From a virus: DNA of 64,000 nucleotides. A model generated the notes under the pieces. It had not been told where the DNA came from and did no database searches. It saw nothing but the letters and a program-made list of their open reading frames with translations. The DNA lies in IMG/VR virus record IMGVR_UViG_3300033153_004222, positions 1 through 64,000 of that record; one strand, written 5' to 3'. Position numbers and translations under genes: made by a program. Shown here one piece after another: positions 18,650 to 62,100 of this stretch; position 1 is the stretch's first letter; each line of letters begins with the position of its first letter.

Positions 18650-19072
18650 TAAATATTATAGCGTAAAGTTATATGTGCTCTTAAAGAGTAACGGAGTGTG
18701 GCGAGGTCCAGCTTGGCAACAGAAATGGTAATCGGTGAGTAAGACAATAGTGTTCTTACCATGAGAGAAGGCCTTCGATAATTGCAATTGTACAGGCAAT
18801 ATGTAATTCAGGCGAATGTAAGTCCCATAACAAATGGGCATTTGACTGTAAATCCTACGCAGTATAAAGGTCTTGTACCTGAAATGTTAAGCGAATAGAG
18901 AGGATTGAAGTTTGTAAGTAGAACTATCTGAAGCAAATCAGTAAAATAACTTTCGGTGATCGTTTTGGGCTTTTTGTTGGAAGGTTTTATGCCTTTCGGC
19001 AAAGCTCAAAGCTATCGATTTTATTTGACATAATCAAGTGGTGTTGAAAAATAAAGTATAGTTATATGATTT
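18650..19072 (+). ncRNA. Large structured ncRNA, ROOL-like (tentative)
   Basis: No credible ORF; local stems (CCCAT/ATGGG, ACTG/CAGT, TTTGGGC/GCTCAAA) and possible end pairing TATAGC/GTTATA; motif order (AATTGCAATT, GAATGTAAGTCCCA, GTAAATCCTACGCA, CCTGAAATGTTAAGCG, GTGGTGTTGA) resembles ROOL RNAs as recalled. Confidence 0.55.
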
Positions 19073-19101
19073 GACATTATGTTGAATTGTTAATAACTTT
19101 G
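19070..19101 (+). promoter_or_regulatory. Complete Bacteroidota sigmaA promoter
   Basis: TTTG (19070-19073), 20-nt spacer, TAACTTTG (19094-19101). Confidence 0.7.
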
Positions 19102-19108
19102 TAAGCTG

Positions 19109-19182
19109 AAGGAAATTAACTACTCATAGTTGCAACTATAGAAGTAGAGCGAGTTGAGTAATTACTTCTCGCTGTTTTCCTT
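19109..19182 (+). ncRNA. Three-way-junction RNA leader
   Basis: AAGGAAA/TTTCCTT closing stem; CTACT..ATAGTTGCAACTAT..AGTAG arm and AGCGAG..CTCGCT arm. Confidence 0.5.
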
Positions 19183-19191
19183 GCAAAATAT

Positions 19192-19273
19192 GGGGATGCT
19201 ACAGGCATTGATTACAATCAGGGCTTTTAAGAGCAGTTGTAAGACGAGGGTTCGAATCCTTCCATCTCCACCA
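19192..19273 (+). ncRNA. Mini-tmRNA: tRNA-like domain only (82 nt), Ala-type G3.U70 acceptor
   Basis: 5' GGGGATG pairs with CATCTCC-ACCA 3'; stemless D-loop; TTACAA/TTGTAA helix; GAC linker; GAGGG-TTCGAAT-CCTTC T-arm. Confidence 0.75.
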
Positions 19274-19279
19274 ATGTAA

Positions 19280-20125
19280 TGGTTCTGGTATACGAAAGAA
19301 AAATCGAGAACAATCGGGTGAAAGCCATCAGATATTATTACAAGACATAGAGCCAAGCAAGACGTGCAATTTAAGGAACAGATGATGTGTGGCTTTTGCC
19401 ATGAATTTATGACGTTCTGGCACGGTGCTCTAACGATAAAGGCGTGTGGGCCGATAACTCTGGCGACAGAGTATAAAGACGAATAGTATTCATACAAGAC
19501 TATTTGTTGCCTCTTCGGAGGTCAATCTACACAAGTTGAAAACGGCAATGATGCGTGAATGCGTAAGTTGTTATCCGATTGCCTAAATCGGATTGAGGTA
19601 GTAATACCAATAGGATAATCAGCAGACATAGTTACAAGTAAGTTTACCAACTTGCAAGTAGTATATGTCAGTTAAATATGGAACTCATTGAGTTTGCGTA
19701 TTTAATCGTGCATTGGTAAATGCATAGAGAACAGTAATCTATTTTGTACCTCAAAAGGGTACGAAGGATTTCCTCACGGACTGTTCTCTATTAGGAAGTT
19801 TATGATTAACTAAAATCAGAAAGCAAAACAAGTGGGGCGTTAGATATCGAAAGATGGCTAATACTATGCACTTCGGTGAACATAGTGCTTCAGTTACTCG
19901 CAAGGTAACTGTTGTTTGGATTCAAAAGACCAAGTATGTCCTGGCCGGGATATAATTGAGTTAAGTAGAATTTGAGTAGGTTCTAATGTTACGAGTGATA
20001 AGCGTTACTTATCGCCATTGGCAGTTACTTTATGCAAATAGAGTGGATACGTTTTTAACCAACAGGAATAAAAGAACGAAAGACTGACCAGATAGGGCTG
20101 TAATCTCAGGCTTTTCCTATCGTTT
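19280..20125 (+). ncRNA. Giant structured ncRNA, GOLLD-like (~840 nt)
   Basis: Many GNRA/UUCG hairpins (CTCTG-GCGA-CAGAG, CCTC-TTCG-GAGG, GGTA-GTAA-TACC, ATC-GAAA-GAT, CAC-TTCG-GTG); long-range TAGAGAACAG/CTGTTCTCTA; CTCAAAAGG and 3' GAAAGACTGAC..CTGTAATCTCAG resemble GOLLD as recalled; next to a tRNA-like element. Confidence 0.7.
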
Positions 20126-20160
20126 TTTCAAGGCAATTGTACAGACAAAACCAAGACATT

Positions 20161-20352
20161 ATGGAATATAATCACGAATATGATAATCATTCGGAGATAG
20201 ATTCTCTGAATGCTAAAGAAATGCAAGAGGCATACAATAAGTATTTGCTCTCGAAAAAGGATGAGCTGAGTGATGAGGAATATAATGCTTTAAGGGCATT
20301 GTTAGCTCAAAATGAAGCTGAGTTTCTATTTGATGATGATACTGATATATGA
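20161..20352 (+). CDS. Small acidic hypothetical protein
   Basis: ATG at 20161; highly Asp/Glu-rich. Confidence 0.55.
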   Translation: MEYNHEYDNHSEIDSLNAKEMQEAYNKYLLSKKDELSDEEYNALRALLAQNEAEFLFDDDTDI

Positions 20353-20457
20353 TAATTGTAATATGTGTCTGACTTACGCACATTAATGAGTGAGTCAAAC
20401 CCTAAAAGAGCAGGGTATAATATGCTCTCGTAATTTCATTTAATTAACAATAAAGAC

Positions 20458-21054
20458 ATGAAAAATTACACAGAAAAAGAGGCAAACGAACAAATTGCCA
20501 AATTGGTACCTGGAAAGGTATTACTAACTTCCGTAAGGAAAGTCGCAGGAGGCAAATTTCACATTGAATTGGCAGAGAAAATCCAATCGCAAAACAGAAG
20601 TACCGTGAATGTATTAGGTATTTTAAATGCGGGTGATGAGCGATTTAATATCGGAGGAGCTCGTAGAGCTTGGGCACCTGCAGAAAAGGCACAACTATCT
20701 GAATTCTTCGGAATTGATGGAGCTGCACTTGATGGATTGGGTGAAAAGGAAAAGATATACGTATGTATAGCTGGACCTGCCTTAAATGGGATTCCATTAG
20801 CTATTCAAATCGTGGAAACGACTGAAGGCGATGATTGGGATAATGCGAATATCGAAACCTCAGCTAAAAGAGCTGGTAAAGATGGAGATATTCTGACGAA
20901 TGAGGGGATGCCAATCTTTTCCAAAACTTATGTGGTAGGAGTACCTGAAGGTAACTCTGTGCAACATGTTTACTTGCAATCTGACCAGCAAATGGAAAGA
21001 GCTGCTAAAGTAAGCCTTGGTGCATCAGCTACAGCTGAACCGACTTTGGATTAA
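20458..21054 (+). CDS. Hypothetical protein, possibly nucleic-acid binding
   Basis: 198 aa; KRAGKDG...GMPIF motif; stands alone between hairpins. Confidence 0.65.
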   Translation: MKNYTEKEANEQIAKLVPGKVLLTSVRKVAGGKFHIELAEKIQSQNRSTVNVLGILNAGDERFNIGGARRAWAPAEKAQLSEFFGIDGAALDGLGEKEKIYVCIAGPALNGIPLAIQIVETTEGDDWDNANIETSAKRAGKDGDILTNEGMPIFSKTYVVGVPEGNSVQHVYLQSDQQMERAAKVSLGASATAEPTLD

Positions 21055-21160: not shown

Positions 21161-21415
21161 ATGTTAACTAAATGGAAAAAATTTTTGACAATGAACAAGC
21201 AAAAAAAAGGTAAGAAAACAAGGACTACCAGCGTCTTTTCTCCGTCTAAAAATGTCAGATCTAAAACAGTTCAAATAGAGTATAAGGATATAATTACTCC
21301 TATACATTGGACTGAAGATGATGATGGAAAAATACAAATAGATGAAGATTTGATAAGGGAAGAATTTGAAGATGAACTTGAAAGAATAATTTTTTTAGCA
21401 AATATAGAATTATGA
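21161..21415 (+). CDS. Hypothetical protein
   Basis: ORF overlapping the next start (ATGA); true start may be the second Met. Confidence 0.5.
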   Translation: MLTKWKKFLTMNKQKKGKKTRTTSVFSPSKNVRSKTVQIEYKDIITPIHWTEDDDGKIQIDEDLIREEFEDELERIIFLANIEL

Positions 21416-22083
21416 TACTGATAAAAAATGAATGGGAAGTTCATGAAATAGGACTGAAAGAGTCAAAAGTATTTGTAGAACAATGGCACTATGCTCACGG
21501 AGCAGGTAAAGTTTCACATAAATGTTATGGGTTATTTTATAAGAATGATCCGGGTACATTACATGGTGTAGCAATATGGAATGTCCCTCCTTTAGGAGCG
21601 GCTAAATCTGTTAGTTCACATCATCAAAGCGTTTTAGCTTTAAGTAGATTTTGTTTAATAGATGATAGACCTGAAAATTCAGGTTCATATTTAATAAGTA
21701 AAAGCATCAAAAAGTTAGATAAATGTAGATGGAATACGTTATTAACCTATGCAGATACTGCATTGAATCATAACGGAGGATTATACAGAGCTGCTAATTG
21801 GGATTACGATGGAATGACAGGAAAGAATCCTATTTTTTGGGATCCAGAAAATGAACGGATGGTCAGCCGGAAAAAGGGACCGAAAACCTATGGCAAACAA
21901 GCTATGCTTGATCAGGGCTATGAATTTAAAGGCAATTATGCCAAGCATAGATTTATATATCCTCTGAATAGAAAAGATAGGAAATTTAAAGCAATAGGGC
22001 AACAAATAGATTTATTGTTTACTTCAGATGGTAAACAAGAATTAAAAATACGTACTAATGACAAAGACAAACTGGCAGATTGA
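21412..22083 (+). CDS. Mom-like (GNAT-fold) DNA base-modification protein
   Basis: FVEQWHY, YGLF, LSRFCL..DRPENSGSYLISKSIK, TYAD...HNGGLYRAANW: Mom family signature. Confidence 0.8.
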   Translation: MILIKNEWEVHEIGLKESKVFVEQWHYAHGAGKVSHKCYGLFYKNDPGTLHGVAIWNVPPLGAAKSVSSHHQSVLALSRFCLIDDRPENSGSYLISKSIKKLDKCRWNTLLTYADTALNHNGGLYRAANWDYDGMTGKNPIFWDPENERMVSRKKGPKTYGKQAMLDQGYEFKGNYAKHRFIYPLNRKDRKFKAIGQQIDLLFTSDGKQELKIRTNDKDKLAD

Positions 22084-48200: not shown

Positions 48201-49255
48201 TCTTTAGAAAGTTTTTTAACATCTGCTTTTCTAAATATAGATTTAAATCTTTCCCAGGCCCGTTTGATAGTATTTAATAATGTTTTAGGCTGCTCATTCT
48301 TAAAATTAGTTATAAGAGCCTGTCCAATTAGCTTTCCTACTGTTTCAGCGATATATTTATCCTCATTATCTTTATACAGATGAGCATAATCTTTTTTTAC
48401 TTTAGTATAAGTGTCTGTTTTAACAGCTAAACTCCTCATTCTCTTTACTAAAGGATTATCTTTTCCCAAAAGTTCATAGATAAAGTGTCCTGCTTCTTCA
48501 GGGATAGTTGTAAGATCTGCTTTTCCTTGCGAGATCATTATAATTTTATTTGTGATATCAGCTACTCCGGCTGCATCTACGCCCATTTTCTCCTTTAAGG
48601 AAGCGTATGCCTCTATTGTAACACCAAAAGGGCTTAGAAAGGCTATAAGACGGTTTTCTAATTCAATTTCTCGCTCATTAATCGCCTGTTGTCGTATAGG
48701 ATGGACAATATCATTCTCAGAATTCAGATCAATAGCTGTTCTAACTTGACTGTCTGAATGAATATTTAATTCTTTAAATCCTTTTAATGCAATGTCTATA
48801 CCTTTTTGATGTAGTTTGTCTGCAAATGCTACTCGTTGTCCTCTTGTAGGAACAGTCTTTATCCCAAGATCAGCGGCAACAGCCTTATTAAATTCTATTA
48901 TATTATCATAAACTTGAATATTCTCAGAATTAACAAATACAGGAGTAACATTCCCAAATTTTTCTGCATAGGATTTATCATTAGTAAAGTATATTCCTTC
49001 TCCTATTTTTGCAGCTCCTCTATTTCTCTTATAATTGTACCTATCTATTCCTGTATCTTCCCCTCTGTACATAACCAGAGCTTCTCCATTTTCATCTACA
49101 ACCTTTGTTTTACCAAATTCTTTTTCAAATGTAGGAGTCTTGGTTACTACCCAAGTCTTTAAAGCCTCAGCTTGTCCATAATCTTTTTCTAAAGAACTAA
49201 ATATTTTAGAATCTTTTCCGTTAGGTGCTTTTACAAAATCTACTTTACAAGCCAT
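45251..49255 (-). CDS. Large virion cargo protein with N-terminal ART-PolyVal-like domain
   Basis: FEKEFGKTKVVDENGEALVMYRG...GEGIYFT...YAEKFG; peptidase-like PEEAGH; hydrophobic C-terminal helices; adjacent to the RNAP gene. Confidence 0.7.
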   Translation of the reverse strand: MACKVDFVKAPNGKDSKIFSSLEKDYGQAEALKTWVVTKTPTFEKEFGKTKVVDENGEALVMYRGEDTGIDRYNYKRNRGAAKIGEGIYFTNDKSYAEKFGNVTPVFVNSENIQVYDNIIEFNKAVAADLGIKTVPTRGQRVAFADKLHQKGIDIALKGFKELNIHSDSQVRTAIDLNSENDIVHPIRQQAINEREIELENRLIAFLSPFGVTIEAYASLKEKMGVDAAGVADITNKIIMISQGKADLTTIPEEAGHFIYELLGKDNPLVKRMRSLAVKTDTYTKVKKDYAHLYKDNEDKYIAETVGKLIGQALITNFKNEQPKTLLNTIKRAWERFKSIFRKADVKKLSKEVRAVYGELASNILNGDATGLSANNMTDTVYYQQTETPDIEDDAEIIKKEQTEEKEEEKTEEEAPQAEIKEEISNIQDVIIDTKNSIELKIKAIERSGKRGDPKVAKIIENLKYMNVLLDGKEKNLAMLNFLGKAQTDLLFVRKKFKSLLAAMEAGDEIDAKELLRYKRYVEIYNIDFIRALLDEIKESEEFKTVIAPEKQMMFKAGFDNLINTINADFKKIGRPLLAKVLQKLNANTDLTEADIESQLEKGLTDTNSFTRWVETLAESSDQIIALGAKMVNEQKEKGRLETNRFEDELYAKINAFEKFRANQGIRIGDPKALYDIFYAKDDKGETDGRLINYDTALKKFGKDSKEFEYYEYFTQTYYKLQKKLPYQFNRGLNLPSIRARAHERVAGKQGIIRVLGEEIKDATTLQADDVGFGEPGTEKQVRDHRFVPVLYHAQIGEKKGMIPPGELSYDLGNSLSAFGAMAINNSQMNTIAAELEILRDLLSNRQVAKTTGGLINTVKGKKHGTPMQRADTMQGNETNGYKQFDMYMDMVFYGMRKDSSEIQIGNKRFVKTKLADALNKYSSMRTLAFNLFSGISNVTMGKTMNFVEAHAGQHFDKKTFISAQKTYLGSMMGFLSDINHKTPKSKLGQLVRLYDGLQEYDEYGTPITGNKLWKRLLNTNAMFFMQKGGEHEIQVTLMIAFLKGKMVKTKSGKEIKLFDAYQQDKNGKLVLSDDVVDYTEEQLIKDSQKIKQVSQKLHGVYNSQDLINAQYVWAGRLAILFRKWLYPSIKRRWGSTRFNQRLESYEEGNYLTVFKFFRNVFKNHKANQVGWVAAYNDTKGGLKDWQKQNIRRSYAEGTIMLGITILIGMLAGLDDEDDERNWVENMVLFQLHRLNAEMKMYMPWNIKEALQILKSPSASMSTVEHIARTVGSIFGMGTSLITEGDIPRYTRDTGLYDEGDAKIWKQFDESIPMWKEIRAMTAPENRLKWMLWK

Positions 49256-52200
49256 TATTCATTACATTTTATTTGTGAATCTCCATCTTCTTGTGCTTTT
49301 TTCATAGCATCTGTAAATTCTTTACTTCCTCTTACTTCTAACTCATCCATATCATCTCCTAAATTTATATTTGTTTCTCCCTGTTCATAAGAAATCTGTT
49401 CCTCAACAGTTTTATTAACAATATTATTATCTGTGGCTACAATATTTGTATTATCTCCAGGAGTAGTTACAGTAGGATCAGGTGAACCAGCTGTAGGTTT
49501 AGCAGGAGGTCCTGATGTATCTACATCCGTGTTATCAGGATGAATTGATTCTGGATTGATTTCCTCTGGATAAACTTCAAAGAATTTATTTTGTTCTCCT
49601 AAAGCATCCATATGAGTATAATGTGCAAAAGCATTTTTAGAAGTTGCTCCTCCTCCTTCTAACAATTTTCTATATCCTCTACGTTTCTTAGAATTTTTAT
49701 CCCACATAGTTACAACTTGTGGAAAACCATTTATAGCACTTCCTTTTTTTCCTTGAACGAAAAGATTTGAATCTTCTCCTACAGAGAATGTTTCTATAAA
49801 ATGCCTTTTGCTTTTAGTATATCCCATAGTAATAGGAGAAACTTGATCAGCTCTAACTTTTTTAATTAGTTTAGGATCGCTAATTCTATTTCTTAGTATT
49901 TGCATAAGAAGTTCCGGTACAGCTAATGCTTCTATTTTTTTATCTTCTTCAATAGCTTTTCTATCTCTTCCTTCTGAATCTTGTTCTTCTAAAGATAAAT
50001 ACCCCCAGCCGTGTGAATCTCTTCCTGCTAAATAAGGAAAGTAAGTTTTAAATGATCCTTCATTTAAATCTTTTAAAAATTTTGATAAACTGGCTGTTGT
50101 ATTTCCTGCAATATCTTCTCCAAGACTTTTCCATATAATAAGAGGTATTAGATCTACAAAAGAATTAGGTCCAGATTGAAAACCAGAAGTTCGTATTGAA
50201 TAATCTACTAAGTTTGTCATTACTTTTTTGACATGCTCTACTGCTTTTTGCTTTTCTGCTGCATTTAATCTTATATGCTTCCCTGATTTAGAATCCCATT
50301 TTACATTAACATTTCTTTCTGTATGATAAAATAATTCATAAAAGGCATCTACAAATGCAGATTTAGTTTCTTGTGTATAAGAAGCTGCATTGTTGAATCG
50401 TACCATTTGAAACTTGTTACTACCATTATAAATATCTCCTGATAAATATTTTAGAAGTTTATTCTCCCCTAAATTATATAAGTACTTTATATTGGTTAAG
50501 TCTTGTGCTACTGTTTGATTTGATTCTCCTTCTTTTGGTTTAAATAATTTCTTTTTACTTTCTTCTTTTGTTCTTTGATTCATAAGGGCTGCAACTGGAG
50601 ATCCTTGTGTGAACATTATAAAAGAATAGATATCCGAATTCATTCTTTCTATTAATTTTTTATCATTAAATGTCCCATTTTTCTGATGAGTCATTTCTGC
50701 CAAGAATTTTTTTGCTCTTAAAAAGAAATCAGAATTATAAGGCATAAATTCAGATATAACTTCTTCTGCTCCTAAAATAGCATGTTCATAATAAGCATTT
50801 AGTCTTGGAGAACTTGAAGGTCCTACAGGTTGCTTTGTAACTGCATCTTTAGCTGGATATACTCCTTTTACAGTTATATTAGCTTCTCCAGACTCTACAA
50901 AGTTTTTATTATTTAACCATAGCTCTATATCAGATAGCCCACTCATTGCTGTAAATCTATCAGGAGCTAACATTTTATTAGATTTAGCTAAATCAGATCC
51001 CATATCCCAATACTTAACAAAGTCCATTAAAACTTGTTTTTGGAATTGAAGCCCTGGGACTTGACCATGTTTTCCAGCTCCAGTTATGCCGCTACTACCT
51101 GGCTCCTCTTCAGCCATTTCAGATATATCTTTTCCTAAAGATTTTCTTAAACCTTCTGGTGTTATTTTTATTCTATTTTCTTCTGCAGCTCCATATTGAA
51201 TCTTCTTACCATTAGGTCCTTTAGTTGGCAAATTTAATTCTGCTGCCATTCTATTAGCAGTTTCAGAGGGAGTATATGCATGTTCATCTAATGCAAATCT
51301 CTTTTTAAGTTCTCTTATTACAGGTTGATTTATAAAATCAGTAGCTATACTATTATTTATTCCCAGCCTATTGAACATAGCTACTATATTAGCAGTAAAT
51401 GTATTTATATTTAAACTACCTGTAATTGGATCTTTTGCATTATCAAGAGAAGCATTTAAATCTTCATTTAAATATAAAGATCGTAGCTCTCCATCAAATC
51501 CATATATTCCACTTAAATCTCTTATTGGATTTTCTTTAGTTCCAATAGTTACTCCCTCACCATTATCCATTTCTATAAATACTCCTTTTTTAGGATCTGT
51601 TATTTGAATGTCAATATCTTGGGATAGTGCATGGGCTACAGAATGATTAGCAAATATTCCTACTAATACTTTAGCATCTTTGTTTACAGATTCTAAATAG
51701 ACATCTGTATAAGCAGAGTTAAAGTTGAAAGTTCCGGTATCTTGAAGCATTCCTGGTATTTCACCATACTCCTTCATTTTATTTTTATAAGTATCTGTAT
51801 CTAAAGGATTTATAACATCAGGTGCATGATTTTTAGATGTTAGTATCCCAAATCTTATAGAGAATAATACATTTTGAATTTCTTTATCAGTTAAAGAGCT
51901 AACATCAATTTTTCCATCTTTTAAGGCTTCTATTTTATCTGCAACAGGAACTTTTTGAAAAGTATTTTCTCCTGTTTCCTCTAAAGCAGGATAAAATAGA
52001 TTTAATTTATCAACATCAAAGTCAGCTCCAGTTTGAGTAGTTATATCAGCTGGTAATACAATCTGTCCTTTAGCGGTTGGGGGAAGAACCTTTTTAATTA
52101 TTAAAGGAAGCATTGAACTTTTTCCTTGAGTTGGAATACGATATCCTACTAATTCAAGAACCGACTTATCCATTCCTGCTCTTTCCATAGCTTGATAATC

Positions 52201-55200
52201 CACAACTCCTGTTTCAGAATTTACATACTCTAATAAACCAAGTTTATTGGCTTGTTGGTAGGAAATAGCTACTTCTGCTGCTTTTAGTCTTCCATCTTCA
52301 AATCTATAATACCCAAGATCATTTGTTTCATCTAATCCATATTCTGCTACCTGGACAGCAGAATCTCCTGGCATTCTTTGTGTCATTACTCTTGCTTTGA
52401 ATATAGACGCTAATGCTATCTCAAATTTCTTTGCATAAGCAGGAAAAGAAAGGGGCATTGCAAATTGTATCTCTCCTTCTATTTTTTCAATTTCTAAAGC
52501 AAGACTGTAATTATCTGGAAGTTCTCTGGACTCTATCTGCTCTAAGAGAAGTTTTTGAATTTTCTTCAAAAAGTTTAAAGCTATATCTGGATCATTAGGA
52601 TTGTTTTTAAATTCATTCCATCCTAACTCTTTAGATAATTTATCAGCAGTTCTTTTTATTTTTTCTACATATACAAGATCGTTTACATTTTTTATATCCT
52701 CAGTTAAAAGCTCTTTAATTCCTTCTATACTATCGTAGATAGCACCTGGAACCATATCTGCTGTTATTAATTTTACTATTTGAGAACCATCTTTAGGATT
52801 CATTCCTTTTTCTGCTGGTAAAACAAATGGACTTCTTTCATTATCAGATTGAAGAACATGAACTTCCATGTTTTCTAACTCTGCACTTGATTTATTGTTA
52901 TATTTTGTTACTCCACTTTTTCCTACTTTTACAGCTGACTCTAAATTAACAGCATCAATTTTTGTTAATCCTTTATCTGCAAACTCTCCAGTTGTTTCCA
53001 TTCTTCGTCTAAGCTTATCTAATTCAGGATTAGTTTTAGTAAAAGCAGGATACAAAGGAACGGTTGAATGTTTTATTTGTGTAAATACAACTTGCTGAAG
53101 AGTTTCATCAAAGTGATATCCAAAAGAAAATGTTTTTAAAGGTTTAAGAGCTAACTTTTGAGCCCATTCAGGCCATGTATTGGGATCGGATTCTTTAGTC
53201 CAATATTCATTATAAGCTACTTCATGGCTATGTTCTCCTTCTGTTGTCCATTCTCCTCTTCCTTCCATAGTTTTCTTATGGGCCTCCAGAGTTGTGTATC
53301 CTTGTGCATCTGATTTATTACTGCCTCTTCTGTAAGGGAGAACTATTTTAACTGCTTTTCTTTCAGCGACAGGAAGTGCTTTAAAGAAAGCATCTAATTT
53401 TTTTTCTAATTTTTTCTTCTTGGTCTTATCAGTTTCCTCATTTATTTTTTCTTCTAAAGCTTCAATATGTTTAATAACATTTTTAGCTCCTGTAACTCCT
53501 AAAGCTCCTTCCCAAGATGGATTTTTAGTAAAACCAATTGCTAAATTGGCGGCTCTATTTAAGGACATTTTAGAATAAATATCCTCTATTATGGCCATTC
53601 TTATCTCTTTAGTTTTTCCATAATCATCTTGAGAATTAGAATCTAAAGCCATTTGTGATACCATATGGTCTAAGCCAGGAGTAATGGATTGATATGCCCT
53701 CTTACCTGCATCTACAACTACACTCACAAATTTTCCTTTGGCTCCTGGAAATTCATCATTTTTAGAAATATCTTTCTCTGTAGATTTATAATAAGCCAGA
53801 TCTCCATTTTCATATTTGCTGAACTCAGTTCTCCATACAAGATCATTGAGTAAAAATTCAGTCATAGCATCATCAACATCTGACACTACAATAGGATTTT
53901 CCTCTGTTCCTATATTAGTAGTAGAACTTGAAAATTTATCAGGTGATATTTCATCAGAATAAAATTTTCCATCATGCTCTACTAAAACTCCATCTGCAAC
54001 CATAGCTCGTTTGCTTCTCAAAGTTTCTCGTTCCATAAAAGCATCTAAAGCTTTATCTACAGCAGTTAATTCTGTTTTATTAAAGAATTTTACATTACCA
54101 TCAGAATCAAATAAGTTATAATTAGTAAAATTTAAATCAGGAATAGACATAAATTTTAATCCGTTTGCCGCCTCTCTATTCAGAGTGCCGTCAGGATTTT
54201 TTCCTTTATAATGGTAGTTTTCTTTAAGCTTACTATCCGGTAAAGCATTTTCACCAAACAATTGTGAATGAACTCTTGATATTCTTGCCCTTTCTTGTAG
54301 AACATTTCTTCTTAATACAGCTTTTGCTGCATTTTTAACTCCTTGAATCTCTCCTATTAAACCTCCTGTTGCATTAAGCTGTGGTACTTTATTTTTGTTA
54401 CTTGCTAATAAAGGAACTCTTATATAAAGAGAACGCCCCTTATCTGATTTAGTTCCAGTATTTATAAGTCCGTATCCTGTATTTTTATAATGACCATTAT
54501 TTCTGTAAAAATTTAACCTTGTTAACCAGGTTTGTTTAGGTGTCATTTTATCATAGGTAATAGCTTCATCACCTCTTTCCAATTTTGTACTATCTAATTC
54601 TATTAGGGCAAACTCTTCCCTTACTTTATTAATACCATTAGAATCTTTAAAATCAAGTAGTAATGAAAATAGCATTGACCTGGCAACTCCGGTATCATCA
54701 GGATTATAATATACATCTCTATTAAATGTTTCCCATATTTTTTCGACTCCTTCTTTGGTAGCCATCTCTGAAGAAAGCTTAGATAGATAAGAATTTAGAT
54801 TTATAGAATAAACCAATTTGCCCTCACCATTAGTGAAAGAACCTGTGTATAAATCACTACTAACATCTTGAACTAACTGAGCTATCTTTTTAAAATTCTT
54901 AGTTTGACCTTTAGCTCCTGTAGTAGTATAAGGATTACTTCCTTTTGAAATTTGTTTATTAGAAGGATTATACCCCAATTCTTTTAGTATATGAGAAAAT
55001 TTTCCTTCAACTACTGTTTTTTGAAACTCTGAAGGAGGATACGTAGTTTCAAACATCTTTAGAACATTGGGTTCAAATTCAATTCCAATATGTTTAAAAA
55101 CTCTGTTTACATGTTTATAATATTCAGTAGGATTCTTGATATGAGAAAATAGGTCTTGATATTGTTTTCCTAAATTAGAAAGTACAGCTGAATTTATAGA

Positions 55201-58200
55201 ACCATCTGCATTAAATAGTCCGAGAATATTTCTATTAGTATTCCATCTTTCTACAATTTGCTTTTGTACATCTTGTCTATTTGTTTCAATGAGTTCCCAA
55301 GCTCCATTTTTATCTACTACAGCTGTCATAAATTTTAACTGTGTCTTAGAAAAATTAGAACGAAAGGCTGTCTTAGTTCTACTATCCCAGGTTAAATATT
55401 TTTGATATACAGCCGATATAGAGCTTTTCCATTGAGCCAATTCTTTTAATCTTTCTTCAATTTGATGTGGTTGGTATCCAGCTAATTTACTTGCAAGGTC
55501 TGCATAGACTTCATCAAAATTTAAAAAAGAAGGAAGTCCAGTAAACTTACTTTTACCATCATCTATAATTTTTTTATTACTATCTCTAATTACTGGTTTC
55601 TGTATAAAACTTAAAGCAGTTTTAACTTGCCAGGACATTGTTTTTTTAGGGCTGGAGTAAAAATAGTTTTCACCATGTATCCTTTCTTTACTATTAGTAG
55701 AAGGATCTCCATCATCATCAACAGTAGGAATTCCAAGCTCTAATGCTTCTTTTTCTATCTTTTCAAATTTATCTACTGTCCATCCTTCTTTAGATTGTGC
55801 AAGAGTTATAGCAACACCATGTTTCCGCAAAGAATTTAAAAGAAGTCCTTTAAAGCCAGGATTCTGAACTACTCCTCCTTTATTTATATCAAGCCATGCC
55901 CCTTTAGAGTTTTCTATAGCTCTATGAACATTCTTTCTTTTTATTTTAGAATTATATACAGAGGTTTCAGATCCAGACTTTCCTTCATTCTTTTGTATGA
56001 ATTTATCTAAAACTTCAACATAATTCTGCATTGTTTCTCGCAAGTTTTCTATTCCTTGCATTAAATCTTTTGTATATTCTCTCTTACTTAAAATATCCTC
56101 AACACTTTGAGCTTTACTTGTTCCATCAGCTATCATTTTAGGAAGAACTTTGGTTACTAAACCAAATCGAAGTGATTCTACCATACCATCTTTTTCTGCA
56201 TTAGACCATTCAGGTTTACTCCTTAACATAGCATCGTTAGGATTAAACTTTTCACTCTTCATTTTAGCTTTAGTAGCATCTGATATTTTAAAATCTCCTA
56301 CTTTAATTTTAAGAAACATTCTTTCCATTGTCATAGAAGAAAGATATATTGAATCTGGATTAAGAATAGTAGTACCATAAATTCTAATAGCTAAGATGGC
56401 TTTTCTTATTCTATCAAATATCTTCTGAATAATTCTTCCTAATTTAGTCTTCTTTATTCTTCCTTTAGATTCCTCTGCCTCCATGAACTCTCTGAATAGT
56501 TCAGCAGCTTTTTCCTCAAAAAAGATTTCTTCTAACTCTGCTTTAGTTTTTTTAGGATATAATTTTTTAAGAGCGTCTTCTTCGGCAAGAGAAAAAGTAC
56601 CGTATTTTTCTTGCATTGCTCTAAAGACCTGTTTCTTTTCTTGTTCAGTTGTAGCAAGATCCATTACTACATGGAAAGATTCGTGATATGCTGTTCCTTT
56701 AGCTCCTAAACGAGCAAGTAATACTAATCCATTTGAATAGGCCCCGTAAGCCTGTCTGCCGCCCTTCATTTGAATATATTTGGCATTAGCCATAGGAAGT
56801 ATATGATCCGGTCCAAAAGTTCTTACAATCCAATCTACTTCAGCTTCAGTTAAAATATTACCTGGATTCTCTTGAAATTTATTTTCTACTTCTAAAGAGG
56901 CTTCTCTCCATTTTATATCTGGACTATCATCTTCTCCCTCTTTAAGTTCATTTCCTTCTATATCAGTATTTTCTACAGTAGCATTTTCTTCTGAGTTCTC
57001 ATCAACTTTTATTCCTGGTTTTTCAACTTCTGAATGAGAATCTCCTTCACCTTCTACAACCTGTTGATTTTTCTTTATTTCTTCTCCAACTGTATCTGTT
57101 TCAGATTGAACTGTAGCTACATTATCATTAGTTACAGAATCAGATTTTTGAATAGGAACTAATTTAACTTTAGAATCTGTAAATTTTTGTCCAGGTGCAA
57201 CATCTGTAGTTACAAGCCCAGGAACACCATCTACTTCTTTATCAGATAAATATTCTGTATAGGAACTATACTCTTTTCCAGTTGTGTAATCTTTAACTGG
57301 TCCATTTTCTATTACTTTTTCCTTACTAACTTGATAACTTTTTCCCATTATAGCCTCTATCAAATTTTCTCTAAAAGCATTTATTGCTGATTCCATTAAG
57401 AGTTTATCCTCTGAAGTAGCTCCAAGTGTGGCATTTCCTCCACCTATCCATTCTCTTTTTACAAAAGCTTTTCCATTAGGATCTACTCCCATTACTTGTT
57501 CCCCGTAGTTTCCTTCGGGTGAGTTTTCTAAACTTTGAAATATACGTACATGATATGCTTGAGAGCCAGGTACAGCTTGTTTTGGATCAATAGGATTTCC
57601 TGCTTCATCTTCTAATCCCAAAGCTTTTCGTAAATTATTATGTTTGCCTCTATTTTGATGATCTACCCCTATTATTTGATTACCTACTTTTATTTTAATA
57701 GCACTATTATCTACATAGAAAAGAGGGGCTTTTGGATTTTCAGATTTAGATATATTATGCCCTGCTTTAGTTGCTATTAAATCTTCTATTATTGCCTTTT
57801 TTTGTTCTCCGTCTAACTTAGGATTTAAAAGAATATTATCTATTACTGATTCAGCATTGGCTCTTGAAATAGTTTTTGTTTCCAGCCTAACCGGAACAAT
57901 TGCCCCATTAGCAGATGGAATCATAGCATATAATCTTCCTCTTTCAGACATTGCATCCATACTTTCCCAAGTATTAGTTTCTCTATTCCAAAAAAGAACT
58001 GCTCCGCCACCTTCTCTTGTACTTGCTTTTCCTACTCCAATTGAAAAATCTTCTCCTATAACCCCTAAATCACTAAGAGGAAGTTTAGCAGATTCTCCCT
58101 TTATTTTTGTATTCATTACAAATCCACGGTTCTTATTCTCTACAAACATTTCAACATTTCCATCTTCATCTACGTAAGTATCCCAATTCATTCTTAGATC

Positions 58201-61200
58201 AAAATCTCCAGCTGCAAGTTTTTGTAAAGGTTTACTTACATTTCCATCTTTATCTATTGTGTGGATTGTAATAGGATCTTGTTGTAAAACTTTTCCTTCT
58301 TCTGGAACATATAAAGGATTTCCAGTTTTAGGATGTTTATATTCTCCTTTTCTAAGAACTACCTTAGAGCCTTTTGTGGCCACTAAAGGATCAACCCATT
58401 GTTCAAAATCAATAACTTGTTCTTCTAATATAACATCATCAGGATTTTCATTAACCATATATAAAGCATCTCCTTCTAAAGTTCCACTTAATAAAGGAGT
58501 TAAATCTCCTGGTTTTCTATTATGAAGGAATTTTTCCATTCCTCTTACATTCTTTGTTACAGGAACTCCTGTTTTCGGATCTATCTTAATAGGATACCAA
58601 TAAATAGGAGTAACTTCTCCTGATTCTATTTTTTCTGCAAGATTTTTTATTTTATGTTTTGGAACTATCTTATACTTAGTCGCTGGTTTTTTTATAGGAT
58701 TACCGTCTTCATCTAAGCCTCTTACATATAAAGATTCTTGATTAGTATATCGTAAAAGATTTGGAGTTGAAGCTGATCTGACATCTTTTGCTTCTAATGT
58801 TATTTGAAGGAATTGAGTATTTACACTACCTACTGCATCTTCTGATATATCATACTGAGGATTAGTAGTTCGTACTACTCCATCTTCTTGCATAGTGTCT
58901 TGAGGATCTGTAGGATTAGCAGGATCTACTTCTACTTCCTCGTCTTCTTCTAAGGTAGGATCATTTTTTAGATCTGAACTTTCTTGAGAATCTTGAAGAA
59001 CTATAACAGTTTCAGTACTTATTCCCCCACCTTCATCTGTTTGACTTTCTTCTGCTTCTTTTTGTATATCTAATTGTTTTTGATCTCTTTCTTTCTGATT
59101 ATCTTCCCATTCTTTTAATTCATCCAATCTTTGATTTACAAGAGATTTATCCTGTGCTTTTAGATCATCTGCATCTTCTAAAGGCTGTACTCCTGCTAAA
59201 AATTCTTCTGATGTTTCTGCTTCTTCTAAAACTTGTAAAAGTCTTTCATTAAAATCTTGTTTCATTTGCTCAGTAAGAGCAGCAAGAGTTTCATTTGGAG
59301 GACCAGGATCTTCTGTTGTAGGAGTTTCATCTGCTGGATCAAGAGATTCATATATAGCTTTCCCATCTTTATCATACCCTGTTAAAATTCTTCCTCCTTG
59401 TATAACCGGTGCTTCATCTTTTTCAGGAGGAGTTTCTTCTGGTTTTCCATCCCAAGAATCAACAAGTTTTTCAAGAGTAGTAATTTCAGCTGCCAATTCA
59501 TCAGTCATTTCACTATCAGGAAGTTCATATAGATTTTCTAACCTATCTAAAGCTAATTTAATACCATCAGGAGCTTTGTTATAATCATATCCTTTTTTCT
59601 TTCCTCCTTTTTTCTTTCCTTTTTCCTCTAACTTTTCAGTTACATCAGGAGGAAGACCTAACTCTTCTCTTAATTTATTGGCCTGTTCCTTTATATTGGC
59701 TTGAATATCAGCATTAATTTTATTTGCTTCCTGTCTAAGGGCTTCTTGTCTTGCCCTTGTTTCAGCTTCTTTTAGTTTTAAACCTAAACGATCTAATATT
59801 TCAAGTCGTGCTGTTCTATCTGGATGATTAGATAGAGCTACACTTCTTCTAAATTGCTCAAAAGTATTTCTATCAAACTTTCCAGCTTGAATAGCTTTAT
59901 GAAGTGTTTCTTCATATGCCTTTCTTCCCCTCCCAATTCTTTCTGTCTTTTGATCAAATTTCTTTCTTTGTCCTTTACTAAAATTATCTTTAAGTAATTC
60001 TCTATAACTTTTATTTCCTTTTAATCTTTGTTTGTTAATTTTATCAAAATTCTTATTTAGGATACTTTTTATTTTCATGGCTGTTCCTATAGTTTCATTC
60101 TCTATAGCCAATTCAACATCAGTTTTAGCATTATCCTCTGCAGATAATAAAGAGCGTTCTTCAGATATATCAGCATCTTGCTCCTGGATAGCTGCTTTTA
60201 TTTCTTTTAAAGCTTTCTTTTGTTCATAATTGTATATTCTATTACTAATAGCAGTATTTCTTACTTGTCTATTTTTACCAACAATACCTGCCATATCATT
60301 CCAGGTTCCTTCCATCTCCTCTATAAACTCAACAGCTTCTTGTGCTCTTTTTTGTGCTCCTTCATCTAATCCTTTGGCTTCTCGCTGTTCTTCAGTCATA
60401 TCAGCAAATCTCTTGTAAGAATTTACTAAATGACCTGTAGTCCCATCATTTAATGACATTACAGTTTGATCCCATAAACTTTGTTTAGCTAAGTTTTGTG
60501 CCTCTAATTTAAGTTTATCTACCTCTTCTTCAGATGCCCCTTCTGATATAGCTTTATTTATTTTTTCTTGAACTTCTGATTGAGCATCCATATGAGCTTG
60601 AAGAGCTGCTCCTTTCATAAAAGTAGTAGAAAGATTAGATTGATTAATGTTATCAAACATTTGATCTATCTCTTGTATACGCTGTTCTTGTTTTGCATAT
60701 TGAGCCTCTTCTTTTGCAGCGGCCCCTGTCATTTGTTTTATAGCTTTAGTACCAGCATATTGACCAAATCCTCCTACAGCTCCTAATACTCCTGCTTCCC
60801 AAAAATGAGGATCTTTGACATGCCTTCCCATCGTTCTTTTATTGGTAAGAGCTTCAAAAATATTATCATCATTTACACCTGTAATAGCTTTACTTCCTGA
60901 TGCTCCTGCAATAAAGTTTATTTGTTCTTCTGCAAATTCTTGTCCAGTTTCAAGACCTGCTACTTTAAGCCCTTCTTTAGACCAAAAATTTGTATAAGGT
61001 TTTATTTTTTCTCTGGATGCAAGTACAGAATTTCTACCTGCCCTGGTAAACATACTTGCACTTACAAGATTCAAGGCTATATTGGCCCTGTTTATATTAA
61101 CTACATCAGATGCATCTGCAGCCGCTTTGGCTTTAGCTTCTGATTCAGATGCCCCTAAAGATTTATATAATAGTATATTATCTCTATAAACAGTTCCTGC

Positions 61201-62100
61201 CTCCATTATTGCTTCTGACTGATTCAGACCTATAGCAGTTCCTAATGTTCCGGCTCCTTTCATCAATTGAGCACCCCATTTTCCCATATTAGCTGCCAAT
61301 GCAGCACTTCCTGCTCCAAAAGTAGCTCCTACAACAAAACCTTGTCCAACAAATGCCCCTATAGAGCCAACTAAAGAAGATCCATTCTCAAACCACCAAG
61401 CAGGATCACCTGCATCAAAAGATTCTCCTGGTCTTTCTCTATAAATGCTAAACTCTTCATTCATAGCTTCCTTTGCCTTATTCATAGCAGATGATATAGG
61501 ATTACCTACCTCATCATCCTGGTTGTAATAGTCTTCAAAATCAAGCATAGAAGCCATTCCTCCTACAAAATCAAATACAGCCGTACCTACAGTTCTAACA
61601 ACTGCATTTCCTGCTTGGTCCCAATGAGATTGCCCAACAGCTCTTCTTCTGTTTAGTTCATCCATTCCAACTGAACCATGAATATTATCCATGTATTTTG
61701 AATAGTCGTCTACATCTATATTATAGTTTGCGTGAGATGTAAATTTACTTTCTAACTCTTCTCCTTCGAGAGTTCTTGTGCCATTTTGGACTGAAATCCA
61801 ATCATTTTTGGTAAAAGGAAATCCGGTAAGAGGATCTATCATAGGAGAAATCCAATAAGGATCGTCTTCTAAACGATCTATATTCGCATCTCCATCTGTA
61901 ACAGCTTGATTGTCGTTAGCGTTTTGAGTGTAAAAATCTGGTTCCGTTCTGTTCCATTCTTCTACTGATTCCTGTTCTTCTTTTCTTAACTTCTCCAGAT
62001 CATCATCACTATACTCTACACCAGTATCAGGATCTATAGCATTATCGTATAATCCTTTTGTTTGTTGAAATACTTTACTGGCTCTATCATGGTGTGGCAT
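49255..62100 (-). CDS. Giant virion-associated RNA polymerase (crAss-like, two-barrel) with zincin domain
   Basis: 4281 aa; GYRIPTQG and TGADFDVDK (52006-52029) catalytic motifs; SDAQGY; HESFH zincin motif (56671-56685). Confidence 0.9.
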   Translation of the reverse strand: MPHHDRASKVFQQTKGLYDNAIDPDTGVEYSDDDLEKLRKEEQESVEEWNRTEPDFYTQNANDNQAVTDGDANIDRLEDDPYWISPMIDPLTGFPFTKNDWISVQNGTRTLEGEELESKFTSHANYNIDVDDYSKYMDNIHGSVGMDELNRRRAVGQSHWDQAGNAVVRTVGTAVFDFVGGMASMLDFEDYYNQDDEVGNPISSAMNKAKEAMNEEFSIYRERPGESFDAGDPAWWFENGSSLVGSIGAFVGQGFVVGATFGAGSAALAANMGKWGAQLMKGAGTLGTAIGLNQSEAIMEAGTVYRDNILLYKSLGASESEAKAKAAADASDVVNINRANIALNLVSASMFTRAGRNSVLASREKIKPYTNFWSKEGLKVAGLETGQEFAEEQINFIAGASGSKAITGVNDDNIFEALTNKRTMGRHVKDPHFWEAGVLGAVGGFGQYAGTKAIKQMTGAAAKEEAQYAKQEQRIQEIDQMFDNINQSNLSTTFMKGAALQAHMDAQSEVQEKINKAISEGASEEEVDKLKLEAQNLAKQSLWDQTVMSLNDGTTGHLVNSYKRFADMTEEQREAKGLDEGAQKRAQEAVEFIEEMEGTWNDMAGIVGKNRQVRNTAISNRIYNYEQKKALKEIKAAIQEQDADISEERSLLSAEDNAKTDVELAIENETIGTAMKIKSILNKNFDKINKQRLKGNKSYRELLKDNFSKGQRKKFDQKTERIGRGRKAYEETLHKAIQAGKFDRNTFEQFRRSVALSNHPDRTARLEILDRLGLKLKEAETRARQEALRQEANKINADIQANIKEQANKLREELGLPPDVTEKLEEKGKKKGGKKKGYDYNKAPDGIKLALDRLENLYELPDSEMTDELAAEITTLEKLVDSWDGKPEETPPEKDEAPVIQGGRILTGYDKDGKAIYESLDPADETPTTEDPGPPNETLAALTEQMKQDFNERLLQVLEEAETSEEFLAGVQPLEDADDLKAQDKSLVNQRLDELKEWEDNQKERDQKQLDIQKEAEESQTDEGGGISTETVIVLQDSQESSDLKNDPTLEEDEEVEVDPANPTDPQDTMQEDGVVRTTNPQYDISEDAVGSVNTQFLQITLEAKDVRSASTPNLLRYTNQESLYVRGLDEDGNPIKKPATKYKIVPKHKIKNLAEKIESGEVTPIYWYPIKIDPKTGVPVTKNVRGMEKFLHNRKPGDLTPLLSGTLEGDALYMVNENPDDVILEEQVIDFEQWVDPLVATKGSKVVLRKGEYKHPKTGNPLYVPEEGKVLQQDPITIHTIDKDGNVSKPLQKLAAGDFDLRMNWDTYVDEDGNVEMFVENKNRGFVMNTKIKGESAKLPLSDLGVIGEDFSIGVGKASTREGGGAVLFWNRETNTWESMDAMSERGRLYAMIPSANGAIVPVRLETKTISRANAESVIDNILLNPKLDGEQKKAIIEDLIATKAGHNISKSENPKAPLFYVDNSAIKIKVGNQIIGVDHQNRGKHNNLRKALGLEDEAGNPIDPKQAVPGSQAYHVRIFQSLENSPEGNYGEQVMGVDPNGKAFVKREWIGGGNATLGATSEDKLLMESAINAFRENLIEAIMGKSYQVSKEKVIENGPVKDYTTGKEYSSYTEYLSDKEVDGVPGLVTTDVAPGQKFTDSKVKLVPIQKSDSVTNDNVATVQSETDTVGEEIKKNQQVVEGEGDSHSEVEKPGIKVDENSEENATVENTDIEGNELKEGEDDSPDIKWREASLEVENKFQENPGNILTEAEVDWIVRTFGPDHILPMANAKYIQMKGGRQAYGAYSNGLVLLARLGAKGTAYHESFHVVMDLATTEQEKKQVFRAMQEKYGTFSLAEEDALKKLYPKKTKAELEEIFFEEKAAELFREFMEAEESKGRIKKTKLGRIIQKIFDRIRKAILAIRIYGTTILNPDSIYLSSMTMERMFLKIKVGDFKISDATKAKMKSEKFNPNDAMLRSKPEWSNAEKDGMVESLRFGLVTKVLPKMIADGTSKAQSVEDILSKREYTKDLMQGIENLRETMQNYVEVLDKFIQKNEGKSGSETSVYNSKIKRKNVHRAIENSKGAWLDINKGGVVQNPGFKGLLLNSLRKHGVAITLAQSKEGWTVDKFEKIEKEALELGIPTVDDDGDPSTNSKERIHGENYFYSSPKKTMSWQVKTALSFIQKPVIRDSNKKIIDDGKSKFTGLPSFLNFDEVYADLASKLAGYQPHQIEERLKELAQWKSSISAVYQKYLTWDSRTKTAFRSNFSKTQLKFMTAVVDKNGAWELIETNRQDVQKQIVERWNTNRNILGLFNADGSINSAVLSNLGKQYQDLFSHIKNPTEYYKHVNRVFKHIGIEFEPNVLKMFETTYPPSEFQKTVVEGKFSHILKELGYNPSNKQISKGSNPYTTTGAKGQTKNFKKIAQLVQDVSSDLYTGSFTNGEGKLVYSINLNSYLSKLSSEMATKEGVEKIWETFNRDVYYNPDDTGVARSMLFSLLLDFKDSNGINKVREEFALIELDSTKLERGDEAITYDKMTPKQTWLTRLNFYRNNGHYKNTGYGLINTGTKSDKGRSLYIRVPLLASNKNKVPQLNATGGLIGEIQGVKNAAKAVLRRNVLQERARISRVHSQLFGENALPDSKLKENYHYKGKNPDGTLNREAANGLKFMSIPDLNFTNYNLFDSDGNVKFFNKTELTAVDKALDAFMERETLRSKRAMVADGVLVEHDGKFYSDEISPDKFSSSTTNIGTEENPIVVSDVDDAMTEFLLNDLVWRTEFSKYENGDLAYYKSTEKDISKNDEFPGAKGKFVSVVVDAGKRAYQSITPGLDHMVSQMALDSNSQDDYGKTKEIRMAIIEDIYSKMSLNRAANLAIGFTKNPSWEGALGVTGAKNVIKHIEALEEKINEETDKTKKKKLEKKLDAFFKALPVAERKAVKIVLPYRRGSNKSDAQGYTTLEAHKKTMEGRGEWTTEGEHSHEVAYNEYWTKESDPNTWPEWAQKLALKPLKTFSFGYHFDETLQQVVFTQIKHSTVPLYPAFTKTNPELDKLRRRMETTGEFADKGLTKIDAVNLESAVKVGKSGVTKYNNKSSAELENMEVHVLQSDNERSPFVLPAEKGMNPKDGSQIVKLITADMVPGAIYDSIEGIKELLTEDIKNVNDLVYVEKIKRTADKLSKELGWNEFKNNPNDPDIALNFLKKIQKLLLEQIESRELPDNYSLALEIEKIEGEIQFAMPLSFPAYAKKFEIALASIFKARVMTQRMPGDSAVQVAEYGLDETNDLGYYRFEDGRLKAAEVAISYQQANKLGLLEYVNSETGVVDYQAMERAGMDKSVLELVGYRIPTQGKSSMLPLIIKKVLPPTAKGQIVLPADITTQTGADFDVDKLNLFYPALEETGENTFQKVPVADKIEALKDGKIDVSSLTDKEIQNVLFSIRFGILTSKNHAPDVINPLDTDTYKNKMKEYGEIPGMLQDTGTFNFNSAYTDVYLESVNKDAKVLVGIFANHSVAHALSQDIDIQITDPKKGVFIEMDNGEGVTIGTKENPIRDLSGIYGFDGELRSLYLNEDLNASLDNAKDPITGSLNINTFTANIVAMFNRLGINNSIATDFINQPVIRELKKRFALDEHAYTPSETANRMAAELNLPTKGPNGKKIQYGAAEENRIKITPEGLRKSLGKDISEMAEEEPGSSGITGAGKHGQVPGLQFQKQVLMDFVKYWDMGSDLAKSNKMLAPDRFTAMSGLSDIELWLNNKNFVESGEANITVKGVYPAKDAVTKQPVGPSSSPRLNAYYEHAILGAEEVISEFMPYNSDFFLRAKKFLAEMTHQKNGTFNDKKLIERMNSDIYSFIMFTQGSPVAALMNQRTKEESKKKLFKPKEGESNQTVAQDLTNIKYLYNLGENKLLKYLSGDIYNGSNKFQMVRFNNAASYTQETKSAFVDAFYELFYHTERNVNVKWDSKSGKHIRLNAAEKQKAVEHVKKVMTNLVDYSIRTSGFQSGPNSFVDLIPLIIWKSLGEDIAGNTTASLSKFLKDLNEGSFKTYFPYLAGRDSHGWGYLSLEEQDSEGRDRKAIEEDKKIEALAVPELLMQILRNRISDPKLIKKVRADQVSPITMGYTKSKRHFIETFSVGEDSNLFVQGKKGSAINGFPQVVTMWDKNSKKRRGYRKLLEGGGATSKNAFAHYTHMDALGEQNKFFEVYPEEINPESIHPDNTDVDTSGPPAKPTAGSPDPTVTTPGDNTNIVATDNNIVNKTVEEQISYEQGETNINLGDDMDELEVRGSKEFTDAMKKAQEDGDSQIKCNE

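Follow-up and report, generated by a model that had tools for sequence, protein, structure and literature searches.

The tRNA-like domain (TLD) of transfer-messenger RNA (tmRNA) is charged by alanyl-tRNA synthetase (AlaRS), bound by SmpB and EF-Tu, and enters ribosomes stalled at mRNA ends, where it accepts the chain and translocates (PMC3985003, PMC4131195). A tmRNA consisting of this domain alone, 'Mycobacterium phage DS6A (TLD only)', is listed by Hudson, Lau and Williams (2014) in Table 2 and the text of their article (PMC4131195). With reference to Mao et al. 2009, the same article reports strong inhibition of tmRNA in E. coli by a similar TLD-like molecule, whether or not it can be charged, 'perhaps acting by titrating SmpB' (PMC4131195). 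The tmRNA database paper of 2025 repeats the DS6A entry and adds tmRNAs without a coding sequence (CDS-less) of mitochondria and two plastids (PMC11915505). Here we describe a predicted 82-nt TLD-only, tag-less mini-tmRNA gene at 19192-19273 on the plus strand of a 64,000-nt stretch of viral DNA (the window), which represents the first 64 kb of the 81,287-bp IMG/VR record IMGVR_UViG_3300033153_004222, a record with direct terminal repeats that is rated complete. We consider it very probable that a lytic marine crAss-like phage here carries a functional gene for a tag-less TLD-only tmRNA of the DS6A type. Its identity is deduced from an end-to-end Rfam alignment, covariation within a family of like elements, a conserved ortholog, and an architecture and score resembling those of DS6A.

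The element opens with the 5' strand of the acceptor stem, GGGGATG at 19192-19198, which pairs with CATCTCC at 19263-19269 to form a stem of 7 bp that includes G3:U70, and closes with the discriminator A and an encoded CCA at 19270-19273. Between the acceptor strands, a linker and D-loop analogue of the sequence CTACAGGCATTGA (19199-19211) carries GG at 19204-19205 and GA at 19210-19211 without any D-stem, and aligns to the 'GGaUUCGA' of the RF00023 consensus. It leads into helix P2 (19212-19242), in which TTACAAT (19212-19218) and GTTGTAA (19236-19242) form 7 bp capped by a 17-nt tip; within the tip, GCTT-TTAA-GAGC folds into a 4-bp hairpin (19223-19226 with 19231-19234). The GAC motif at 19243-19245 and the T-arm GAGGG-TTCGAAT-CCTTC at 19246-19262 follow, both of them read from the sequence and the Rfam alignment. 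All of these parts lie on the plus strand. The initial annotation of this locus had listed the acceptor with G3:U70, the A and CCA, the missing D-stem, the capped helix, the GAC and the T-arm, and we found every one of them in place.

RF00023, the standard tmRNA model, aligns to 19192-19273(+) over model positions 1-374, including both ends, with 46.7 bits and a local E-value of 5e-17. The characteristic parts of a tRNA-like domain are complete, namely the 7-bp acceptor with G3:U70, A73, the GG loop without D-stem, GA...GAC and the T-arm, and those TLD elements that are capitalised in the Rfam consensus (GG, GA...GAC and the T-loop) are all represented. The coding part of a standard tmRNA is absent: where a tmRNA has its mRNA-like domain and pseudoknots, corresponding to 310 central model positions, the mini-tmRNA has its 17-nt tip, and we found neither mRNA-like domain nor resume codon, tag frame, stop or pseudoknots. 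A crude filter for typical tag endings likewise returned no tag-like short frame on either strand within 18801-20500. With 82 nt, the element falls into the size range and layout of a DS6A-type TLD-only tmRNA, which spans about 75-100 nt with a P2 closed by a short tip and no coding part. A search pattern built from these features matched once in the window and not at all in 100 dinucleotide-preserving shuffles. The minimum free energy of the mini-tmRNA is −20.3 kcal/mol (z = −0.85), which is ordinary in comparison with shuffles, and the tmRNA-like fold, at −19.4 kcal/mol, is 0.9 kcal/mol less stable than this minimum. Folding energy alone does not settle the structure; support for the fold comes from covariation.

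Using the same strict pattern, we retrieved 80 elements of 78-98 nt from IMG/VR, 63 of them distinct in sequence and their source contigs ranging from 30 to 66% G+C. With these 80 further stretches, TLD-only tmRNAs amount to a sizeable family. Of the helix positions, the pattern itself prescribes acceptor pairs 1-4 and 7 as well as 52-62 and 53-61 of the T-stem, and covariation was read at the free ones. Here, all 64 of 64 sequences form canonical pairs at 5-68 and 6-67 of the acceptor, using 4-6 pair types, and 63-64 of them do so at 49-65, 50-64 and 51-63 of the T-stem, using 4-5 pair types. In P2, canonical pairing at pairs 1-6 is seen in 56-64 of the 64 sequences, and each of these pairs occurs in 4-6 standard types. 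The formal covariation count was performed on 28 sequences of equal linker length (alignment A3). In this alignment, 97.4% of the cells were paired versus 70.9% in shuffles, and the covariation score reached 0.702 versus 0.158, values that none of 500 shuffles attained in either case; when the partner strand was slid by 1-3 columns as a control, only 46-57% of the cells paired. All seven P2 pairs were found changed on both sides. These substitution patterns indicate that the TLD-only family is under selection for this fold.

ARAGORN, which was run on 60 of the family loci, never calls the element as a gene of about 80 nt. At 13 of the 60 loci, the program calls a tRNA on the same strand at a distance of no more than 100 nt. 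In the loci designated L003, L005, L019 and L056, long 'tmRNA' calls of 300-340 nt with odd tag peptides end on the element, as does a 'tRNA-Val' call in L005; these calls are probably artefacts that could mislead annotation. Apart from such artefact-like calls, the fetched stretch is free of any tRNA call at 42 of the 60 loci. In one lineage (L012:1329-10147 and L023:1-5413), the mini-tmRNA is the first gene of an array of 26-28 tRNAs; a weak GOLLD-like element (67-70 bits), itself enclosing a tRNA-like call, lies in the same array.

Closer relatives of the phage were sought by means of the terminase. An RF00023 match with an E-value of at most 1e-5 was obtained in 4 of 50 terminase-related phage records, and in 2 of the 6 among them that are at least 90% complete. 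One of these matches, in a fragment with 67% terminase identity (L085), is a clear ortholog of the mini-tmRNA. Its acceptor stem and D-loop analogue are identical to ours save one linker base, while its P2 reads TTGAATG/CATTCAA versus TTACAAT/GTTGTAA here, so that the helix is kept by compensatory changes, as it is throughout the family and as would be expected of a DS6A-type RNA. T-stem pair 51-63 is U-A in the ortholog versus G-U here, the tip stem is unchanged with a different tip loop, and the 3' end reads ACTA versus ACCA, from which it follows that the encoded CCA is not conserved in this lineage. In the pairwise alignment, the mini-tmRNA forms a conserved island between an upstream flank and a following stretch of about 450-550 nt that have both diverged. 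The proposal of the initial annotation that the element is a tmRNA reduced to its tRNA-like domain, lacking a tag frame, is therefore carried by four lines of evidence: the RF00023 alignment, the covariation, this ortholog, and a build and score matching those of DS6A.

The other three RF00023 matches (records G089, G090 and G120) belong to a different alanine-type tRNA-like RNA of 77-79 nt, located at L137:1501-1577(+), L138:1501-1577(−) and L139:1501-1579(−) in three related crAss-like phages. This RNA has an acceptor with G3:U70, a T-arm and one plain hairpin, is devoid of GA/GAC motifs and ends in ACAA; it scores 34-42 bits with RF00023 and is not accompanied by GOLLD. The four distinct tRNA-like genes of this phage group all have A-Y-A-T as the four bases preceding G1.

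Two other assignments were tried and rejected. An ordinary tRNA, such as tRNA-Ala, would require the D-arm and anticodon-arm cloverleaf that the element does not form, and the tmRNA model was the one retained in the Rfam clan competition; ARAGORN, also at a lowered threshold, called no tRNA and no tmRNA either in the window or in the whole 81,287-bp genome, which agrees with the earlier view that this is no ordinary tRNA. A two-piece or permuted tmRNA was represented by a weak tmRNA_permuted match at 19210-19404 (17.1 bits, E 0.57), the downstream part of which is unconserved in the ortholog. In blastn searches, the 82 nt alone matched only T-arm and acceptor 3' ends of tRNAs and tmRNAs, covering at most 43% of the query, and 19100-20200 found no match among 50,697 phage records; a pattern specific to this lineage matched none of the IMG/VR stretches.

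The phage genome has a G+C content of 33%, and PHROG searches identified portal, large terminase, major head protein, DNA polymerase, helicase and primase. In tblastn, the terminase shares 38-40% identity with those of crAss-like phages, the matching records tallied under Bacteroides, Flavobacterium and Cellulophaga, and public runs having words in common with the locus are marine or vent metagenomes. The source is thus read as a marine crAss-like phage, whose host is probably a member of the Bacteroidota. SmpB was not found in the phage genome, meaning that a host partner would be needed. Upstream of the mini-tmRNA, about 340 nt (18850-19191) are also without a credible open reading frame, and no Rfam family matches within 18900-19191; at 19126-19139 of this region, ATAGTTGCAACTAT forms a perfect palindrome of 14 nt, and AGCGAG (19148-19153) pairs with CTCGCT (19168-19173) in a stem that precedes GTTTT. 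Farther away, a Mom-like DNA modification protein (PHROG 1384, E 2e-37) is encoded at 21412-22083 (+), 1.3 kb downstream of the GOLLD RNA discussed below, and an open reading frame of 4,281 aa at 49255-62100 (−) is comparable to the giant virion proteins of crAss-like phages by its size alone.

Directly downstream of the mini-tmRNA, we detected a GOLLD RNA. According to the published descriptions, GOLLD RNAs are often longer than 800 nt and vary in their 5' region, and tRNA genes are found near them (bioRxiv 2024.12.08.627333; PMC6582537), and Kretsch et al. describe GOLLD env-38 downstream of a tRNA-Met, tRNAs that sometimes lie in the linker, and a ribosome pull-down (bioRxiv 2024.12.08.627333). 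The conserved 3' domain occupies 19727-20112 (+) and belongs to RF02032 with 208.2 bits versus a gathering score of 150, over model positions 1-416. The preceding stretch, 19274-19726 (+), probably forms the variable 5' domain; its boundary is deduced from the poor conservation relative to L085 between two conserved elements and from the spacing of the tRNA slot. The ortholog keeps a GOLLD RNA (171.8 bits) behind its mini-tmRNA in the same order.

To place this arrangement, GOLLD loci from IMG/VR (at least 80, L144-L223, fetched by the 3' motif and not dereplicated) were surveyed, 64 of which have at least 1,000 nt upstream. Among the matches listed, a tRNA (11 Met, 2 Pro) ends 841-1114 nt before the end of the GOLLD 3' motif at 13 of the 64 loci, starts 8-21 nt after the motif at 21 of 80, and lies in the linker at 7 of 80. 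Relative to the same motif end, the mini-tmRNA is found at −917 to −839 and that of L085 at −1001 to −922. In this lineage, the mini-tmRNA occupies the slot that is held by a tRNA elsewhere, and the phage itself is tRNA-free. A TLD scan of the GOLLD loci, which recovers the elements of the window and of L085 as well as 79 of 80 known elements, gave no TLD-like element in the upstream slot of the 64 other GOLLD loci among the matches listed. Conversely, a GOLLD-like match was present in 2 of the 80 mini-tmRNA records, both times below threshold (70.3 and 66.7 bits) and about 6 kb off inside a tRNA array. A general link between TLD-only tmRNAs and GOLLD was rejected on these counts, which point to a pairing specific to this lineage.

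As to its function, the mini-tmRNA may be a competitor that blocks or diverts host trans-translation by engaging SmpB and stalled ribosomes without tagging, a proposal that the inhibition reported for a similar molecule supports and to which we give about an even chance. The RNA would be transcribed by itself, or else as the 5' portion of a joint precursor that includes the abutting GOLLD RNA. From processing onward, the steps are an inference from established tmRNA biology and the DS6A literature: host RNase P and 3' processing enzymes would trim the RNA like a tRNA, host AlaRS would charge it with alanine by means of G3:U70 and A73, and host SmpB would bind it. It would then compete with the full-length tmRNA of the host for SmpB, EF-Tu and ribosomes stalled at mRNA ends. 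As there is no resume codon, tag frame or pseudoknot, no degradation tag could be added, and the net effect would be that host trans-translation, comprising tagging and the coupled mRNA decay, is blocked or diverted during infection. If RNAs of this family do shut down or bypass trans-translation, they would constitute a widespread phage counter-measure against ribosome rescue.

Several observations weigh against this reading and against the tmRNA assignment underlying it. The RF00023 score lies 0.3 bits below the gathering score of 47 and hence under the threshold for a standard tmRNA. C18 and the first P2 pair deviate from the tmRNA consensus, the latter being U-A instead of C-G, a type that is found in only 4 of 64 family members. 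Five marine Bacteroidota tmRNAs, from genomes chosen only from among chance matches to the 5'-half pattern, agree with the mini-tmRNA in the T-arm, two of them at 20 of 21 letters, and are unlike it in the 5' half. The patchy occurrence among the terminase-related records means that the mini-tmRNA is dispensable in this phage group. No promoter was identified for it, and sigma-70-like sites in the region are no commoner than in shuffles; the only such site on the plus strand (TTGACA-type) lies at 19025-19052. Coverage in RNA libraries is sparse as well: a single 158-nt contig of depth 2.6 matches 19215-19271 without mismatch and then continues into unlike sequence, and further matches are 31-nt pieces with 3 mismatches, which probably derive from other tRNA-like RNAs. 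RNA-library contigs from four studies cover GOLLD relatives over 19449-20110, 90-95% alike. It should be kept in mind that such libraries can contain DNA, that the contigs show no transcript ends and that uncovered parts prove nothing. Lastly, the position of the mini-tmRNA in the tRNA slot would also fit a role tied to GOLLD instead of SmpB.

Instead of inhibiting the host system, the RNA could support a productive, tag-free rescue, in which the alanylated TLD accepts the chain together with SmpB and drop-off or a release-factor-like protein frees the ribosome, as proposed for some mitochondrial CDS-less tmRNAs. The retention of all alanine-identity and TLD features would suit this explanation, as would the account by Himeno et al. 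(2014) of an Ala-TLD-SmpB complex that accepts the chain and translocates (PMC3985003). Without a stop codon or frame, however, another release factor would be needed, and the phage yielded none. With a complete tmRNA already present in the host, the benefit to a lytic phage is doubtful, and it is inhibition rather than rescue that Hudson et al. (2014) report for the similar molecule (PMC4131195). We regard tag-free rescue as unlikely. Slightly less credit is given to a role as partner or processing element of GOLLD, in which RNase P and the 3' processing of tRNAs, acting at the mini-tmRNA, would set the GOLLD 5' end, or the tRNA-like RNA would serve as cargo or tethered appendage of the GOLLD cage. 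Here, the tRNAs found at fixed places around GOLLD (among the matches listed, upstream, downstream and in the linker), the lack of any other tRNA in the phage, and the finding that GOLLD likewise follows the mini-tmRNA in the only relative with an ortholog of it argue in favor, together with the absence of any terminator-like site between mini-tmRNA and GOLLD and the published tRNA-Met of env-38, linker tRNAs and ribosome pull-down (bioRxiv 2024.12.08.627333). That a tRNA-shaped gene is kept 5' of GOLLD in an otherwise tRNA-free phage suggests that GOLLD requires a tRNA-like neighbor, be it for processing or as a partner. On the other hand, TLD-only tmRNAs are mostly found without GOLLD and the surveyed slot holds no TLD-like element at other GOLLD loci, among the matches listed. 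Moreover, RNase P needs only an acceptor/T minihelix, which leaves unexplained why G3:U70, GG, GA/GAC and P2 are kept in both orthologs.

A combination, in which mini-tmRNA and GOLLD act as one functional unit, is improbable in our estimation: the TLD would form the 5' end of the GOLLD transcript, attached or locally released, and the 14-mer cage, which may display or hold many alanine-accepting, SmpB-binding tRNA mimics, would act as a sink for SmpB or stalled ribosomes. If true, such a unit would link GOLLD to ribosome rescue. Known anti-phage tRNA nucleases usually attack the anticodon loop. A decoy that absorbs host defence nucleases cutting the acceptor or T-arm regions of tRNA and tmRNA would be compatible with the tRNA-like shape and with the frequent position beside phage tRNA arrays (13 of 60 loci, as given above), yet the mini-tmRNA has no anticodon loop to offer, and we consider this reading very unlikely. 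Least probable of all is a remnant, which would be decayed, non-functional DNA derived either from the end of a host ssrA copied at an attachment site or from a degenerating tmRNA or tRNA-Ala gene. Although tmRNA genes are frequent integration sites (PMC11915505) and the RF00023 score falls just below the cut-off, both halves of the TLD are present and perfectly paired, the ortholog carries compensatory changes while the flanks have diverged, and RF00023 gives the published DS6A RNA a lower score. Neither a tyrosine integrase nor a serine recombinase or resolvase was matched in the complete genome with its terminal repeats, and an anticodon arm is missing. The remnant, which the initial annotation had itself named as a way for its reading to fail, is disfavored on this evidence.

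Compared with known systems, the standard tmRNA (SsrA, RF00023) shares with the mini-tmRNA the G3:U70 acceptor, A73, the GG of the D-loop analogue, GA...GAC, the start of P2 and the T-arm, whereas its mRNA-like domain, resume codon, tag frame and pseudoknots have no counterpart here; the marine Bacteroidota tmRNAs measure 369-401 nt versus 82 nt. In a separate search for a host tmRNA, 93 matches to the 5'-half pattern in genome_contigs were dismissed as chance that carries no information on the host, since no tRNA or tmRNA called by ARAGORN coincides with any of them and several are coding-like. Within the Crassvirales, the permuted tmRNA genes of the gut crAss-like phages cr50_1 and cr272_1 are likewise tmRNA-derived and have a near-identical T-arm and acceptor 3' end, but represent long two-piece forms, matched by tmRNA_permuted over 369 and 248 nt (60.3 and 40 bits) and annotated with 496 and 370 nt, respectively. 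These features, at L141:1442-1937 and L142:1441-1810, are annotated simply as 'tmRNA', and in cr50_1 a RAGATH-22 RNA (155.6 bits) lies about 450 nt upstream of the tmRNA. We also noticed an unannotated full-length standard tmRNA (RF00023, 111.5 bits) between tRNA-Trp and tRNA-Asn in Mycobacterium phage Nanosmite (L143:283-635). The CDS-less organellar tmRNAs of jakobid and other mitochondria and of two Mallomonadaceae plastids, which are described as roughly TLD only and thought to depend on SmpB, can be likened to the mini-tmRNA by description only and differ as organelle genes with a dedicated imported SmpB (PMC11915505). The tRNAs that flank or are embedded in GOLLD share with it the tRNA shape and the position directly 5' of GOLLD on the same strand (bioRxiv 2024.12.08.627333; PMC6582537), but they are decoding tRNAs, mostly tRNA-Met, in contrast to a tmRNA TLD without an anticodon arm.

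The closest counterpart is the TLD-only tmRNA of DS6A (tmRNA Website tmID 11587), which is unannotated in its record and in which 20 nt replace 312 model positions. It is phage-borne as well and has about 80 nt, a 7-bp acceptor with G3:U70, a GG loop, a T-arm, no D-stem and no tag frame; its P2 of 6-7 bp is capped by a short hairpin, and its Rfam alignment is alike, with 43.2 versus 46.7 bits here. Differences lie in the source, a GC-rich Mycobacterium actinophage versus a marine crAss-like phage of 33% GC, in CAC versus GAC, in the end ACTA versus ACCA, and in the position of the gene between protein genes (601 nt fetched) instead of before a GOLLD RNA. In the open-access literature, supplements apart, we found no paper on a phage-wide TLD-only family or on a TLD beside GOLLD. 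The reading of the locus given in the initial annotation holds as to the identity of the mini-tmRNA, while its functional proposals, a decoy for SmpB or nucleases or a tag-free rescue, draw on what Hudson et al. (2014) report of Mao et al. 2009 (PMC4131195). The GOLLD RNA directly downstream had been missed, and the implied novelty was overestimated, as the type is already in print (PMC4131195, PMC11915505). Judged by its sequence and fold, 19192-19273 belongs to the published DS6A-type TLD-only tmRNAs, of which its adjacency to GOLLD is the only unusual feature and the new detail, and it extends a type in print for one phage and a few organelles to marine crAss-like phages.

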